From: an uncultured bacterium
Lineage (GTDB): Bacteria; Abyssobacteria; SURF-5
DNA: 64,000 nucleotides
Direction: 5' to 3'
Assembly: GCA_964607485.1 (NCBI GenBank)
Contig: CAZSKP010000002.1
Location: 82,520 to 146,519, forward strand
Under the pieces are notes generated by a model. That model saw nothing but the letters and a program-made list of their open reading frames with translations, was not told the DNA's origin and did no database searches. Shown one piece after another: positions 36,094 through 41,533 of this stretch (position 1 is its first letter; every line of letters begins with the position of its first letter). Position numbers and translations under genes: made by a program.

Positions 36094-37317
36094 TCACTCG
36101 ACCTCCGGCATGGCGATGAGCTGGACCTTCACGCGCTCGCCTTTCTTCTGCTGCTTCGTTCCGCGCGGGAACAGGATGATTGCGTTCGCGAGGTCCATCG
36201 AGACGAGTATGCCCGAACCCTGCGGGCCGGTGGTGGATGCGAAGTAGTCCGCGCCTTCCTTGCGCACGACGGCGCGAATCAGGTGCATCCGCTCCGGCTT
36301 CTTCTTGATGTCCTCGTCGAGCACGGCCTCGACGACGGGACGAAACAGCCTGCGCCTGCCCATCATCTTCAACAGCGCGGGCCTGACAAACTCCTCGAAG
36401 GACACCATCGAGGACACCGGATTGCCCGGAAGCCCGAAGACCGGCTTGTCCCCTGCCAGCCCGAACACGGTCGGCTTGCCGGGCTTTATGGCGACCTTCG
36501 TGAACTTCAGCTCGACGCCGAGTTCCTCGAGGACGTCCTTGACATAGTCGTAATCGCCCACCGAGACGCCGCCCGAGCTCACTATCATGTCGGCCGAAAG
36601 TCCCTCTTTCAGGTGAGCGCGCACGTCGTCTATCGTGTCGCGGGCGATGCCGAGATATTTCGCCTCGGCGCCGCATGCGCGCGTCTGCGACACCAGTGTG
36701 TACGAGTTGCTGCTGCGAATCTTCCCGGGCGCCGGTGGCTCGTCGGCGTCGAGAAGCTCGTCGCCGGTGGCGAGAATGGCGACGATCGGCCTGCGGACGA
36801 CCTTTATCACGGCCCTTCCGACCGACGCGAGCAGCCCGATTTTTGCCGGTGTGAGCTCCTCTCCCGCGCGCATCACCGTCTGGCCGTCGGCGATGTCCTC
36901 GCCCGCCAGCCGGATGTTCCAGCCCTTTTCGTGCTCCTTGAGAATGCGGACGCGGCCGTCGGCGACTTTCTCGGTGAGCTCGACCTGCACGACCGTGTCG
37001 GCTCCGGGCGGAACGGGCGCGCCCGTCATGATGCGGATGGCCTGGCCGGGGCCGACGGCCTTCTCGGTGTGCCGGCCGGCGGGCAAATCCATCAACACAT
37101 TCAGCTCGACCGGGCTCTTTTCGGATGCGCCGCTCGTGTCGTCAGCCCGGAGGGCATAGCCGTCCATCGCGGAGTTGTCGAACGGCGGAATGCGCTCGGT
37201 CGAGGTCACGTCCTCAGCGGCGACCAGCCCGAGCGTATCCAATATCGGCATCTCCACCGTGTCGAGGACACGGACCGAATCGAGCACAATCTTTTGGGCT
37301 TCCTCGAAGGTAACCAT
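36094..37317 (-). CDS. moeA: Molybdopterin molybdotransferase
   Basis: PPFDNSAMDGYA, IMTGAPVP, TGDEL, SGGVSVGDYD, LPGNPVS. Start moved to MVTFEEA. Confidence 0.95.
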   Translation of the reverse strand: MVTFEEAQKIVLDSVRVLDTVEMPILDTLGLVAAEDVTSTERIPPFDNSAMDGYALRADDTSGASEKSPVELNVLMDLPAGRHTEKAVGPGQAIRIMTGAPVPPGADTVVQVELTEKVADGRVRILKEHEKGWNIRLAGEDIADGQTVMRAGEELTPAKIGLLASVGRAVIKVVRRPIVAILATGDELLDADEPPAPGKIRSSNSYTLVSQTRACGAEAKYLGIARDTIDDVRAHLKEGLSADMIVSSGGVSVGDYDYVKDVLEELGVELKFTKVAIKPGKPTVFGLAGDKPVFGLPGNPVSSMVSFEEFVRPALLKMMGRRRLFRPVVEAVLDEDIKKKPERMHLIRAVVRKEGADYFASTTGPQGSGILVSMDLANAIILFPRGTKQQKKGERVKVQLIAMPEVE

Positions 37318-37423
37318 GACTGAATCGCAAAAATATACCCTCTTTGGGGTGTCAAGAGGGCACCGAATTTCGCTACCGGACGCGCTCAAAACGCGCCCGC
37401 TGTGGTCCAACGCTATCCGCTAG

Positions 37424-37452
37424 ATAATATCAGAATTTCAGCGGCCAGTCAA
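37424..37452 (-). promoter_or_regulatory. Sigma70 promoter for the moeA operon
   Basis: TTGACT-N17-TATTAT. Confidence 0.65.
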
Positions 37453-37487
37453 GGCATTTAGCCGAGGCGCTTCCCAGCTTTTTTTCT

Positions 37488-37525
37488 CTTCTTTTTCTCT
37501 CTTTGCGGAAAGAGAGAAAAAGAAG
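37488..37525. terminator. Polypyrimidine/polypurine hairpin downstream of the TIR gene
   Basis: Stem of about 17 bp, CTTCTTTTTCTCTCTTT-GCGG-AAAGAGAGAAAAAGAAG. Either a terminator or a repeat element. Confidence 0.5.
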
Positions 37526-37608
37526 CAAGAAGAGAGAAACGAGGGAGGTCTTTATCTTCTTAACCTTATAATTCAAAATCTGACTCGCCTCTTTATATCA
37601 TCTGCTCA

Positions 37609-38748
37609 TTAACTCTGCTCGATCAATCCCTCGCGCTCCAATACGCGTCGGACTTCCTCGAACGCAGCGGAGATGTTTCCGCGAGGAAATCGAATCTGGC
37701 CTAAGCCCTCGATATTGCTGAACTGCTCGCAGTCTTCCTCTAGCATGACGATTGCCCTGCTGAATCCGAGTCGCCCTTGAAACAATCCGGCCTCGTGAAC
37801 CACATTCATTCTTGCTTGGAGCGCCCCGTCAGCCATTTCATCTTCAGCAGTCATCACTAAGAAGGCGATCGCAGCAGCGTCGAGCATTTCTGACAATCTG
37901 GCAATGTTCGTGACGCCGGCGACAGGCACGCGATTGAATTCGTCCCAAGGCAATTTCAGTCGATCCTGGATAAAGTCTTTAAGGTCGCGCCATACGGACG
38001 ACCCGCCATGGCCGATGAAAACGTTTGTCCCGATTCTCTCTGCGGCTTTGCGTCTACGAGCTTTACGTTCCAGATGCGATGCCGCCTTCGTCGCAATGCC
38101 GCTGGCAACATCGCAGATAGCGAACGCATGGCGAATAGACTTTACCTCCGCGATGAGGTCCATATGGGGTGGTATTTGCGTTCCTTGTCCCAAGACGATT
38201 GTATCGCGGGTCATGATCTGGCCCTTTGGGGAAAGATGTTCCGCAACTTTGAATGGGGATAGCGGACTTAGCTTTTCGATTTCCTTCTTCACGTTCTCTA
38301 AAAATCCATCGTTGCGCTCTTCGATCTCGTTCTGAAGGACGGAAATAATCTCCGACTTGACGTACTCGAAGGTCTCTGATGCTGCTTCGGCTGCCTTATG
38401 AGCAACATCAAGATCAGGCTCTCCGGCTAGCTTGCGGATACGCGCCTTAACGTCTTCGGCATCATATTCCCGCCAATCTCCACGCGACCCGAGATTTGAT
38501 ACACATGTATCCATCAGCCCCCACTCCTGGCTGAAGTGTGCCCCGGGCGGCGGAGGCGAAAAATCCACGTAATACACGCATGAGTGATACCCCTGCCATG
38601 AGCCGGAGAACGAACGCCCAATCATTAGTGCAGCGTCCTCTAAGGCGCTAAGCGGCTTAGCTATGTCGTCACTGTCCGCACCGCTAACGGCTTCCTTCAA
38701 CTTCTCGGCAAGTGCGAAGAGTTCTTCATGCGGAGTCAATGCAAGCAC
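37609..38748 (-). CDS. Protein with a C-terminal CAP12/Pycsar-type TIR (PF10137-like) domain; integron cassette gene
   Basis: VFIGHG, AFLVMTAED, ARMNVVHEAGLFQGRLG, FSNIEGL. Begins directly after the attC. Confidence 0.88.
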   Translation of the reverse strand: MLALTPHEELFALAEKLKEAVSGADSDDIAKPLSALEDAALMIGRSFSGSWQGYHSCVYYVDFSPPPPGAHFSQEWGLMDTCVSNLGSRGDWREYDAEDVKARIRKLAGEPDLDVAHKAAEAASETFEYVKSEIISVLQNEIEERNDGFLENVKKEIEKLSPLSPFKVAEHLSPKGQIMTRDTIVLGQGTQIPPHMDLIAEVKSIRHAFAICDVASGIATKAASHLERKARRRKAAERIGTNVFIGHGGSSVWRDLKDFIQDRLKLPWDEFNRVPVAGVTNIARLSEMLDAAAIAFLVMTAEDEMADGALQARMNVVHEAGLFQGRLGFSRAIVMLEEDCEQFSNIEGLGQIRFPRGNISAAFEEVRRVLEREGLIEQS

Positions 38749-38766
38749 TCCCAGAGACGAAATGAC

Positions 38767-38838
38767 ACATAACGATTGAACTCACTGTTTTTTACGGAGC
38801 GTAGCGGAGTAAAAATCCAGTGCAGTGATTTGTTATGT
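38767..38838 (-). mobile_element. Integron attC site (72 bp)
   Basis: Minus strand: R'' ACATAAC, 5 nt, L'' ACTGCACT, central TTTTTAC/GTAAAAA stem, L' AGTGAGT, 6 nt, R' GTTATGT. There is one extra base in L''. It lies immediately after a stop codon. Confidence 0.88.
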
Positions 38839-38839
38839 T

Positions 38840-39745
38840 TTAATACAGGTCAACACTTTTTATTTCACATTCAGCTGAACTTATTTTCACCTTGGTAATC
38901 TCTCTGTAAGAACTAAATGAAAAATTAAAGCTCATTGACCCCGTTTCGCTACCATGGGCGTATAGACTATGTGTTTCACTTTCATAGTTTGAATCTGATT
39001 GTGTCGTGTATGTTTGCCTTCCCTTATATTCGATTTCGACGGTGCATTCCACTTCAACATCGATATATGAACCACCTTTGTAGTCTGTCTGAATTTCGTA
39101 GTCCAACGTCACATCACAATCCCGATAATAATTACCAGTGTAACTTTCATTACAGTCTATATCGGCTCCAGTAATTTCGACACAAACCTCTGCCCCAGTT
39201 TTATATTCGGTTTCACAATCATCACCACTGACACCCTGAAGCTTTCTTCTCTCCATCTCAAGTTTAAACGCCTTCTCAACTTCTTTTTGCTCTTGGATTT
39301 CCTGTGGTGTCATGGCAACACATATATTGCCTGATTTTTTAAAACCACTTTCACATTCCCAACCATTACCCAAAGAATTTAATTTACCGTTTTTAGGAAT
39401 TCTGACTGCTTTACATTGACCGCCGGATTTATAGTATCCTCTATTACAGTCCCAGCCATTACCCAGGTAGTTCAATTTGCCATTTTCGGGAATTTCAACT
39501 TTAAGACATTGATCGCCTGATTTATAAAAGCCCCTCTGACAATCCCATCCGTTACCCAAATAATTCAATTTGCCATTTTGAGGAATTTTTACGGCAATAC
39601 ATTTTCCTCCTGATTTGTAGAAACCTCGATCACAAGACCAACCATTCCCATAGGGATTTTTATGGGCATTATCCGGTAAGGATTGTGCTACGGAGGAGGA
39701 AGGTATCATTAATAGTAAGCTGAGAAACCAAAATAGTAATTTCAA
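38840..39745 (-). CDS. Secreted Cys-rich repeat protein; integron cassette gene
   Basis: Signal peptide, then four 31-aa repeats PxNGKLNxLGNGWxCxRGFYKSGxxC. AT-rich. Likely TTG start after GGAGG; the ORF track starts at 39763. Confidence 0.85.
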   Translation of the reverse strand: MKLLFWFLSLLLMIPSSSVAQSLPDNAHKNPYGNGWSCDRGFYKSGGKCIAVKIPQNGKLNYLGNGWDCQRGFYKSGDQCLKVEIPENGKLNYLGNGWDCNRGYYKSGGQCKAVRIPKNGKLNSLGNGWECESGFKKSGNICVAMTPQEIQEQKEVEKAFKLEMERRKLQGVSGDDCETEYKTGAEVCVEITGADIDCNESYTGNYYRDCDVTLDYEIQTDYKGGSYIDVEVECTVEIEYKGRQTYTTQSDSNYESETHSLYAHGSETGSMSFNFSFSSYREITKVKISSAECEIKSVDLY

Positions 39746-39759
39746 TTTAACCTCCAAAA

Positions 39760-39791
39760 ACATAACAATGTTTATATGGTTTATTCATAAC
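39760..39791 (-). mobile_element. attI-like site
   Basis: TAAACATTGTTATGT, compared with attI1 TAAAACAAAGTTRRRY. A second GTTATG lies 25 nt upstream. The core GTTATGT is the exact complement of this cassette's R''. Confidence 0.6.
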
Positions 39792-39863
39792 ACCTTTGGG
39801 CTGCGACATCGCGGCACAGGTCCCCGCCGGCAATGTTCGCATAAGGTTAATCGCAATGGCTAT

Positions 39864-39893
39864 AAAATACTACTTTCAGTTAAACAAAGTCAA
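39864..39893 (-). promoter_or_regulatory. Candidate Pc-like promoter driving the cassettes
   Basis: TTGACT-N18-TATTTT about 100 nt upstream of the attI-like core. Confidence 0.4.
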
Positions 39894-39904
39894 GGGAAAC
39901 AAGA

Positions 39905-40711
39905 CGGTCCAAAGTCGGGAGTCCGGAGTCCTGAGCTCAAAGACCATAACAGATTACGAAACGTCTTGAGAGTTCTTCCTTGCACCTTGGTGGCTTGGCG
40001 TGAGGAGAGATTGCTTCGGTCGTTACTCTCCCTCGCAATGACAACCAGGAAAAGAAAGAAAAAGAAATTCGCGTTTATCTGCGTTCATCCGCGGTGAGAA
40101 GAGGTTGTCTGTCGTTCTGCGAATAAATTCGCACCTACCTCATGTATTTCTCCGTGATCCCCGTGGTGAAAGAGGCTCCGCCGGGGCAAAAGGGGAAAGG
40201 CTCAAAAGGCGAAAAGGGAGAATCTGCGCTAATCCGTGTGCATCCGTGGTTCCCGTGGTGAAAGAAAGTCCTGAGTCAGGAGTCCTGAGTCTAGAGTTTA
40301 GACCACGAATTACACAAATTACACGAAATATCCTAAGAGTTCTTTTTTGCGTCTTGGCGTCCATTCGGCCTCGCTCATGGCGGGCCTGGCGTGAGGAGAG
40401 ATTGCTTCGGTCGTTACTCTCCCTCGCAATGACAGCCAGCAAAAGAAAGAGAAATCTGTGTTAATCCGTGTGCATCTGTGGTTCCCGTCTTTTTTCTGCT
40501 TCCTGTGGTGAGTTTTCTTCGCGGTCCTTCGTGCGCTTGGTGGATAAGACTGTTTTTGGGCGCTGCATGCGCTCCCTCTACAGAGATTTGTGTGATTCGT
40601 GGTCATGGAATCCTCGTATCTCGTTCACCCGCGCTAAGTCATTCTGAGCGTAGCGAAGAATCTCATATCTAACTGGCCAACAAGGAGATGCTTCGCTGCG
40701 CTCAGCATGAC
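39905..40711. repeat. Non-coding mosaic of several repeat families, including a duplicated module
   Basis: Identical 48-mer at 39996..40043 and 40387..40434, AGTCnGG heptamers, ATCYGTGTKCATCYGTGG-type nonamers, GTAG-type REP-like hairpins and a family A element at 40638..40711. Confidence 0.85.
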
Positions 40712-40772
40712 AACTGACTGGCTGATACCAGACAGTCACAGAGGGCGGTGAACCCTCTCCAGAGCCTGGGGC

Positions 40773-40801
40773 TTGACAAGAATAAAATTCTAGAGTATAA
40801 T
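40773..40801 (+). promoter_or_regulatory. Consensus sigma70 promoter with an overlapping palindromic operator
   Basis: TTGACA-N17-TATAAT. Near-palindrome TAGAGTATAATTCTA over the -10. Confidence 0.85.
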
Positions 40802-40807
40802 TCTAAT

Positions 40808-41428
40808 ATGCCGAGGAAAGCACGGAGCAGACATGCAGGGTCAACGAAGCGCAGGCGGGAGATTGTCCGGGCGGCGCTGGAGTGTTTTGCGGAGTTCGGG
40901 CTCGCCAACGCCACGATGGAGGATATCCGAAAGCGCTCGGGAGCGAGCAACGGCAGTATCTATCACCATTTCACGAGCAAGGAGTTGCTGGCCGCGGCGG
41001 TGTATGTCGAGGGACTCATCGAGTACCAGCGGGGGCTGCTGGCGGAGCTCGAGCGCCATCAGGACGCGCGGGCCGGCGTGCGCGCAATCGTCGGCTACCA
41101 CCTGCGTTGGGTGAACGAGCATCCGGACTGGGCGCGGTACCTGCTGGAGATGCGGCACGCCGAATTCGTCGCGACGACGGAGGCGGCCATCGCGGAGGAG
41201 AACCGGCGGTTCGTCGCGCGGCTGGTCGGGTGGCTTCAGCCGCACATCTACGCGGGGGCATTGAGACGCCTGGCGCCCGACCTCTTCATCTCGATGATTA
41301 TCGGCCCAAGCCAGGAGTACACGCGGCTTTGGCTCGCCGGCCGGGCGCGCACGGAGCTTTCTGCGGCCGTCGAGGAGTTGGGCCGGGCGGCGTGGCTGGC
41401 CGTTCGCGGCGGCGAAGGTGATGAATGA
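40808..41428 (+). CDS. TetR/AcrR family regulator
   Basis: AALECFAEFGLANATMEDIRKRSGASNGSIYHHFTSKE HTH. Start moved to MPRKARS. Confidence 0.93.
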   Translation: MPRKARSRHAGSTKRRREIVRAALECFAEFGLANATMEDIRKRSGASNGSIYHHFTSKELLAAAVYVEGLIEYQRGLLAELERHQDARAGVRAIVGYHLRWVNEHPDWARYLLEMRHAEFVATTEAAIAEENRRFVARLVGWLQPHIYAGALRRLAPDLFISMIIGPSQEYTRLWLAGRARTELSAAVEELGRAAWLAVRGGEGDE

Positions 41429-41533
41429 ATGCAACCTGTGAGAGAGCTACCAGCGTGGCATGCTGTGGGGACAGTCCCCGTCGCTCACCGCAACCGTGCG
41501 AAAAATTCGCAGTCCCCACCGTTGCGGTATTTC

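Follow-up and report, generated by a model that had tools for sequence, protein, structure and literature searches.

Two cassettes between moeA and tetR

The window analysed here, 64,000 nucleotides (nt) of contig C2 (CAZSKP010000002.1) from an uncultured bacterium of the SURF-5 lineage (Abyssobacteria), carries a lineage-specific insertion of 3.3 kb between moeA and tetR. Within this island, two genes are read from the minus strand and an attC, the recombination site of integron cassettes, lies between them. The first gene encodes a secreted Cys-repeat protein and the second a TIR-domain protein. An initial annotation made from the sequence had described the same elements and explained them either as an integron that had lost its integrase gene (intI) or as a solo attI platform serviced in trans. 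The observation itself is confirmed; its interpretation is partly supported. The features that carry the argument are:

37463..40771, no strand: lineage-specific insertion between moeA and tetR, 3.3 kb of cassettes and host repeats, delimited by a gap in the similarity to relatives
38773..39765, minus strand: cassette 1, which starts with TTATGT at the 5' junction and extends to the G of R', delimited by its open reading frame (ORF) and the attC context of homologues
38767..38838, minus strand: attC of cassette 1, from sequence, fold and two covariance models
37609..38772, minus strand: cassette 2, truncated, with a PF10137 match and no attC of its own, bounded by similarity to relatives
39760..39766, minus strand: GTTATGT, the 5' junction core of cassette 1, complementary to the cassette's own R''
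39767..39798, minus strand: AT-rich stretch with attI-like layout, from sequence likeness to the attI region of locus L028

Both genes are foreign in composition, as the initial annotation had proposed. The G+C content (GC) of cassette 1 is 0.37 to 0.41 and that of the TIR gene about 0.50 to 0.56, compared with 0.60 to 0.68 in the flanks and 0.574 in the genome.

The attC site

The intergenic spacer that carries the attC is 91 nt long. An attC was defined as an R'' box ending in AAC and an R' box starting with GTT, 57 to 141 nt apart. With the minus strand read as top strand, R'' is ACATAAC (38838-38832) and R' is GTTATGT (38773-38767), complementary at 7 of 7 positions, and the site spans 72 nt, which on contig C2 are 121286-121357. 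From R'' the order is ACATAAC, a 5-nt spacer, ACT-G-CACTG, a 7-bp inner stem with a 13-nt loop, CAGTG-AGT, a 6-nt spacer and GTTATGT. The L stem has a single bulged G after 3 bp (in the R''-L'' arm) and there is also a 2x1 loop. The hairpin is imperfect, with 11 unpaired bases on the 5' arm versus 10 on the 3' arm; the 5' arm is likewise the one with more unpaired bases in 16 of 22 reference attC sites. The site is co-oriented with both genes and lies where a cassette's attC belongs, since R'' begins one base past the stop of the cassette 1 gene. The start of the TIR gene is 19 to 28 nt downstream of R'.

As single-stranded DNA the plus strand folds into one imperfect hairpin of -12.0 kcal/mol (z -2.58; 1 of 200 shuffles equally good), and the minus strand reaches -11.0 kcal/mol (z -2.43; 3 of 200). 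Perfect 7-bp boxes of the form NNNNAAC..GTTNNNN occur at 465 places in the genome, 64 of which close as single hairpins. As the window site is only 18th of these 64, fold energy by itself is non-discriminating, and covariance models were built because it left attC versus chance undecided. The R1 seed consisted of 10 attC sites of other genomes, from arrays around homologues of the cassette 1 gene, and the R2 seed of 8 sites of other genomes, downstream of homologues of the TIR gene. The window site was left out of both. RNAalifold found no hairpin in a MAFFT alignment of 13 attC sites, and the structures were therefore set by hand.

Each model had a single match on the two strands of the window, and in both cases this was 38767-38838 on the minus strand at full length (R1, 18.8 bits, E = 0.0084; R2, 24.3 bits, E = 0.0011). 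With filters off over the island the site scored 24.4 bits on the minus strand and 5.7 on the plus strand, nothing else exceeded 6 bits and these home-built models revealed no second attC. In an alignment of 43 R2 matches from 64 sources, 85.3% of cells pair, versus 67.8% after shuffling and 28 to 37% when the partner is slid, and 17 of 21 pairs show compensatory change on both sides; this alignment was fitted to the model and therefore leans towards structure. Other searches at the site were negative. BLAST of the genome found no second copy, the site has no T-run and was not called in the terminator scan, and Rfam (36500-41500, E up to 10) gave no family at the attC, only chance miRNA-type matches on a host palindrome (REP-A, below).

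Because two covariance models agree and the site occupies the same position as the attC behind homologous genes, it stands above chance. On this footing 38767-38838 is a genuine attC, for which recombination of the bottom strand by the integron integrase (IntI) is predicted, and the initial annotation was right to call it canonical.

In three runs of one study, a T>C variant was seen in the attC loop at 38802. In run X3, one contig of low depth follows cassette 1 as far as 38803 and beyond that carries a divergent form of the attC arm, a hint that another genome of this habitat has a related cassette.

Cassette 1 encodes a secreted Cys-repeat protein

The ORF of cassette 1 (38840-39763) has 307 codons; the likely start is TTG at 39745, behind GGAGG, which gives the 301-amino-acid form found in protein databases. 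Its features are a signal peptide, four Cys repeats of 31 residues each, one long helix and a beta-sandwich of six strands (structure model, mean confidence score pLDDT 86). The repeats model as EGF-like hairpins. Fold searches returned weak matches to ApaG/DUF1425-like beta-sandwiches and to EGF repeats (best E = 6e-4, template-modelling score 0.15 to 0.3).

Among 747 candidates, 181 were homologues at E up to 1e-3. They are spread across phyla, with sources that include Idiomarina, Aeromonas, Pseudomonas, Sulfurovum and delta-proteobacterial bins, and all are named 'hypothetical'. A scan of species-representative genomes yielded 79 loci. An attC-like hairpin follows the stop by 1 to 8 nt in six of the 18 closest (L021, L023, L024, L025, L026 and L028), and in four of these six the attC opens with ACATAAC, the R'' of the window. 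L023 has six attC sites arrayed within 4.7 kb, and in L021 and L025 the homologue has an attC on both sides. In L028 it occupies first place among the cassettes, and a divergent IntI ORF (430 bits, cut-off 265) lies 195 nt away.

The family varies from one to seven 31-residue repeats with a conserved C-terminal beta domain (loci L021-L038 and L028:9674-10849). Its range takes in Gamma-, Alpha- and Deltaproteobacteria, Nitrospinae and other groups, where it is frequently a cassette.

Cassette 2 encodes a TIR-domain protein and has lost its attC

The TIR gene (37609-38748, minus strand) encodes a protein of 376 or 379 amino acids. Residues 242-354 match PF10137, the CAP12/Pycsar-type TIR family (2.4e-19; 69.9 bits, cut-off 24.7). 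PADLOC reports its TIR effector, PycTIR and candidate PDC-S35 models, all on the TIR half only. Structural matches of the TIR domain to those of TIR-STING, SARM1 and SPARTA are weak (E = 0.03 to 0.3), and the model there has a pLDDT of 40 to 68. The N-terminal domain is helical and confidently modelled, and its 230 residues had no match in profile or fold searches. The protein reaches 36 bits with the NCBIfam Cap12 equivalogs, whose cut-off is 450, and is therefore no Cap12 orthologue. The only neighbour of its gene in the islet is the Cys-repeat protein gene, a cyclase partner having been sought in the ORF list only. The domain content makes it reasonable to infer that the protein acts alone in defence, by depleting NAD.

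More than 4600 homologues of the TIR gene were found and 80 metagenome loci were fetched. In the nine closest loci, nucleotide similarity sets in at the G|TTATGT crossover (38773-38780) and runs out at the stop codon (37606-37618). GTTATG stands at the onset of similarity in at least 8 of the 14 closest loci, and 10 or 11 of these 14 have an attC of their own 28 to 45 nt after the stop. Under a strict fold rule an attC follows the TIR homologue in 15 of the 65 loci with enough downstream DNA. With R2 at E up to 0.05, at least one attC was found in 20 of 55 loci, several having two or three, and 42 of 43 matches were on the strand of the gene. Downstream of the window TIR gene, by contrast, an attC is absent: 60 AT-rich bases after the stop are succeeded by a host palindromic repeat. 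The lack of a recognisable attC in cassette 2, already remarked from the sequence, was thus borne out with filters off. Judged by sequence and by the context of homologues, both window genes are integron cassettes.

The 5' junction and an attI-like stretch

The core GTTATGT (39766-39760) lies just 5' of the GGAGG ribosome-binding site and is complementary to R'' (ACATAAC, 38838-38832). That cassette 1 begins G|TTATGT, as the complement of its own R'', was correctly seen in the initial annotation. GTTATGT or GTTATGC is also present at the 5' end of the homologous cassettes in L025, L026, L021 and L028.

Upstream, the AAC-N3-GTT core and the second GTTATG that had been reported are both present as sequence, the former as AAC-ATT-GTT at 39772-39764 and the latter as GTTATGA at 39791-39785. 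GTTATGA is followed by ..ATATAAAC-ATT directly before GTTATGT. The attI region of L028 has a comparable layout, GTTATGT-N12-TTCATAAC-GTACT-GTTATGT. The R2 score over 39760-39798 is 5.7 bits, a value to be read in the knowledge that no general attI model exists. As a lead, the resemblance to the L028 attI makes 39760-39798 a short, putative attI.

Integrase and further attC sites in the genome

The genome (4.70 Mb in 93 contigs, 97.5% complete) was searched for IntI by three means, none of which found one in the assembled contigs. The best match to TIGR02249 was a 315-amino-acid Xer-like ORF on C18, not C2 (86.6 bits, cut-off 265). In tblastn, the L028 IntI reached at most 34% identity over partial length, to Xer-like genes. 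Phage_integrase (PF00589) had eight matches, on C18, C22, C56, C82, C24, C3 and C19, and none on C2, C7 or C72. The window therefore contains no tyrosine recombinase, as first noted, and neither profile nor tblastn revealed an intI fragment in the island or elsewhere in the window. No complete integron, with intI beside an array, is present in the assembled genome.

The initial annotation had named an absence of related attC sites elsewhere among the grounds for giving up its reading. Three to four further sites were found:

C72:6415-6471, minus strand: attC, R2 34.4 bits, R1 20.8 bits
C72:6014-6092, minus strand: attC, R2 19.4 bits
C7:98922-98987, minus strand: attC, R2 30.2 bits with filters off, lost with default filters
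C2:44089-44156, plus strand, outside the window: weak attC candidate, R2 12.5 bits, E = 0.23 (L191 2090-2157)

The two C72 sites are about 400 nt apart, between three small ORFs on a 9.5-kb contig with open ends (locus L181, C72:5262-7585), one of which encodes an anti-TRAP/DnaJ-type zinc-ribbon protein. Candidate IS110-, IS4- and IS3-type transposase ORFs (insertion sequence types judged from sequence) flank them. With two sites and no IntI, this pair is a cluster of attC with no integron integrase (CALIN). The C7 site overlaps the stop of a gene for a 328-amino-acid membrane-anchored protein (GC 0.37) between a P-type ATPase gene and secA. This islet (98922-99968; locus L182 6923-7969) is bracketed, as is the window island, by a promoter-like module upstream and a REP-A palindrome downstream. 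The weak C2 candidate lies 57 nt after a 272-amino-acid ORF, at a step in GC from 0.50-0.54 to 0.63. It is very similar in sequence to the attC that follows the TIR homologue of L103.

This census is incomplete. The whole-genome R2 scan scored 150 of 1489 candidates and did not recover the site in the window, and the R1 scan returned nothing, the window site included, so these runs are uninformative on absence. A pre-screen by arm alignment, which recovers about four in five known attC, replaced two earlier heuristics that recovered about half and were dropped. At a score of at least 11 it gave 122 matches, versus 46 in a shuffled genome. Most of the 122 are hairpins of repetitive extragenic palindromes. 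Of the 20 best unexplored candidates, C2:44089-44156 alone received any R2 score.

Host repeats and a promoter-like module

The island is bordered by moeA (36094-37410, minus strand; Pfam MoeA_N, MoCF and MoeA_C) and the divergent tetR (40748-41428, plus strand). Similarity of the window to G006, a genome from a different genus of the same family, and to other relatives stops at 37462 and resumes at 40772. G006 has moeA, tetR and a SnoaL gene side by side, and about 260 nt separate the first two. A perfect sigma-70 consensus (TTGACA-17-TATAAT, 12 of 12) at 40773-40801, before tetR, stands exactly where similarity to the related genus resumes.

The island is filled by the cassettes and four kinds of dispersed host repeats, of which two concern the edges of the cassette pair:

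37478..37550, no strand: REP-A palindromic host repeat between the TIR gene and the moeA promoter, with copies on C7, C17 and C40 and in relatives G001 and G008
39849..39942, minus strand: host repeat module rep-B, with a promoter-like TTGACT-18-TATTTT (39893-39864) pointing into the cassettes (promoter scan)

Besides the module there are three further repeat families (37478-37550, 39980-40042, 40380-40433 and 40638-40715). The types in the spacers are a purine/pyrimidine-rich palindrome, a unit of about 100 nt present twice here and a unit of about 75 nt found on many contigs and in several relatives.

Nine strong copies of the module were found in the genome (nhmmer). Those outside the window are:

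C6:155202-155259
C10:20094-20149
C4:189161-189218
C78:5667-5721
C7:100100-100157
C62:11611-11664
C37:40684-40741
C26:4188-4244

The core reads CTTGACTTnnnTTAACTGAAAGTAGTATTTTrTAGC and is often preceded by short repeats of GGACTCC type. Three genomes of the family, from two genera, have variants with two or three mismatches, and a reversed-pattern control gave none. Because of its nine copies here and its copies in family relatives, the module is host DNA and not the cassette promoter (Pc) of an integron. The candidate promoter of the initial annotation is thus upheld as a promoter-like sequence but not as part of an integron. The module ends at about 39859, and the next 93 nt, up to the junction, occur in the window copy alone.

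All nine copies are followed, in the same orientation, by an islet of low GC and 1 to 6 kb. Four islets carry defence-type genes: the TIR protein of the window, in C62 a SIR2-STAND protein, in C10 a DEDDh exonuclease with BRCT / PDC-S48 and in C37 a GHKL ATPase accompanied by a type II methyltransferase. Two carry attC cassettes (the window and C7), and no attC was found behind seven of the nine copies (the C37 copy was not scanned with the models). Downstream of the copies in relatives, GC is only mildly lower. It is conceivable, but rather doubtful, that the module is a dispersed, lineage-specific pad for the landing and expression of foreign genes. If the module or its 3' edge did attract insertion, for example as a preferred site of IntI or another recombinase, it would be a multi-copy, integrase-less counterpart of attI plus Pc. 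Such a repeated promoter-like module before nine foreign islets is the part of this work that could lead somewhere new.

A comparison of the moeA-tetR locus among strains had been proposed. The related genus lacks the insertion. Four runs of one study have the same arrangement, and in them no contig skips a cassette by a join at the att sites. A contig joint at 37542>39859 was considered as an empty site and rejected, as its shorter side has 29 letters and links two repeats.

Origin of the locus

The locus is probably a stranded, integrase-less fragment of a cassette array, its cassettes left or placed by an IntI that is no longer present. It belongs to the class of single attC lacking integron integrase (SALIN), used here for a single attC without IntI where sites were called with home-built covariance models. 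It is not a CALIN (at least two attC within about 4 kb, no IntI) because island and window have one attC. On the minus strand the proposed order is a junction G|TTATGT at an attI-like or secondary site, cassette 1 with its intact attC, and cassette 2 without one. The pair may have arrived by an attC x genome-site (attG-type) insertion catalysed by IntI, after which the terminal attC was lost, or the attI-proximal end of a cassette array may have been captured. The 3' attC of cassette 2 would have been deleted later. The pair would now be fixed and, without IntI, static; the attC of cassette 1 is predicted to be usable still if IntI were supplied. Both genes are promoterless, with ribosome-binding sites of their own, and face away from the promoter-like site of the module about 100 nt upstream. 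They are probably co-transcribed from this host module, as has been described for genome-inserted cassettes near resident promoters (bioRxiv 10.1101/2022.09.11.507474). The terminator scan found no terminator-like site between them.

Several points weigh against this origin. The genome is a draft in 93 contigs, and 'no IntI' applies to the contigs assembled. The R1 and R2 seeds come from cassettes homologous to both window genes, so the R-box consensus (ACATAAC..GTTAT) is partly shared by descent and not fully independent, while the stems of the seed sites have no sequence in common with the window attC. The E-values of both models are rough. The closest homologue of cassette 1 (L022, 92% at the amino acid level) has only ACATAGCAAAT and no attC hairpin after its stop. 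Finally, there is no right-hand junction (attC-G|WT-host), and for this reason an insertion of attG type is not demonstrable.

Two explanations were first offered for the locus. A complete integron (intI, attI and cassettes) between moeA and tetR could have decayed in place, with deletion of intI and the distal cassettes. The 30 nt before the junction are attI-like and similar to the attI of L028, where the first cassette is homologous, and deletion did take place at the locus, as the absence of an attC from cassette 2 shows. In-place decay is nevertheless less likely because no trace of intI was detected by profile or tblastn and the place expected for it (39800-40770) is filled by host repeats with dispersed copies in this genome and in its relatives. 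The 260 nt at the same site in the related genus, and other attC loci scattered in the genome and likewise without IntI, also speak against it, and we regard it as unlikely. An active solo attI platform, where a host promoter drives cassettes exchanged by an IntI acting in trans from a plasmid or another cell, would account for an attI-like core beside a promoter-like module that points into the cassettes, for the intact attC and for a second single-attC islet behind a copy of the same module on C7. But the genome is without IntI, seven of the nine module copies (C37 outside the model scans) have no attC behind them, and the junction is 93 nt beyond where the module ends, in sequence that only the window copy has. 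The locus is also identical in four samples of one study. Such a platform is very unlikely and has no support in this genome.

The remaining alternative dispenses with integrons altogether and sees in the hairpin a chance palindrome or transcription terminator within an ordinary genomic islet. The fold energy is indeed unremarkable and BLAST found no second copy. In addition, the bulged base in the bottom strand of an attC is usually G, and the window site has C. However, two models match only this site in the window, on the right strand and at full length, in the position of the attC behind homologous genes; a terminator is contradicted by the lack of a T-run and of a terminator call; and similarity of the next gene to its relatives starts at the crossover base. 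This alternative is extremely improbable. A stranded fragment of a cassette array remains the preferred origin.

Comparison with known systems

SALINs are defined as single attC sites lacking integron integrase (PMC9024848; bioRxiv 10.1101/2022.09.11.507474), and according to the second source they are common, with 3400 in 2469 RefSeq genomes. The window element is like them in being small, with an attC-bearing cassette and no IntI nearby or in the assembled genome. It differs in that two cassettes share its one attC, the second cassette having lost the site it had, and in that the genome also has the two-attC cluster on C72, flanked by candidate transposases, and the single site on C7. Since SALINs, CALINs and a possible origin by genome insertion are already in print, little is added to the concept. 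The locus is, rather, a clean and well-bounded case of cassettes outside integrons in an uncultured sediment lineage, with crossovers readable to the base and an empty site in a related genus.

Insertion of cassettes by IntI into genome sites (attG type) has been described, with a nearby resident promoter as the condition for expression and GWT..CRGM as the reported genome-site motif (bioRxiv 10.1101/2022.09.11.507474). The window is similar in its left junction, G|TT, and in the position of the cassette near a resident promoter-like module. It differs in having no right junction (attC ending in G, then host WT) and in the 30 nt before the junction, which are more attI-like than GWT..CRGM.

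The integron of L028, in a metagenome-assembled genome of Candidatus Poriferihabitaceae, shares with the window the protein family in first position, the GTTATGT crossover, a duplicated upstream GTTATG and an attC directly after the stop. Upstream, in contrast, it has the divergent intI (430 bits) where the window has host repeats, and the inner sequences of the attC sites are unrelated.

Anti-phage defence cassettes in integrons have already been reported (bioRxiv 10.1101/2024.07.02.601686). Cassette 2 resembles them as a CAP12/Pycsar-type TIR protein with PADLOC matches, its defence activity being presumptive, and differs in that its PADLOC and PF10137 matches cover the TIR half only. The locus shows that two protein families, one of secreted Cys-repeat proteins that is widespread and unstudied and one of TIR-domain proteins, move between phyla in the form of cassettes.

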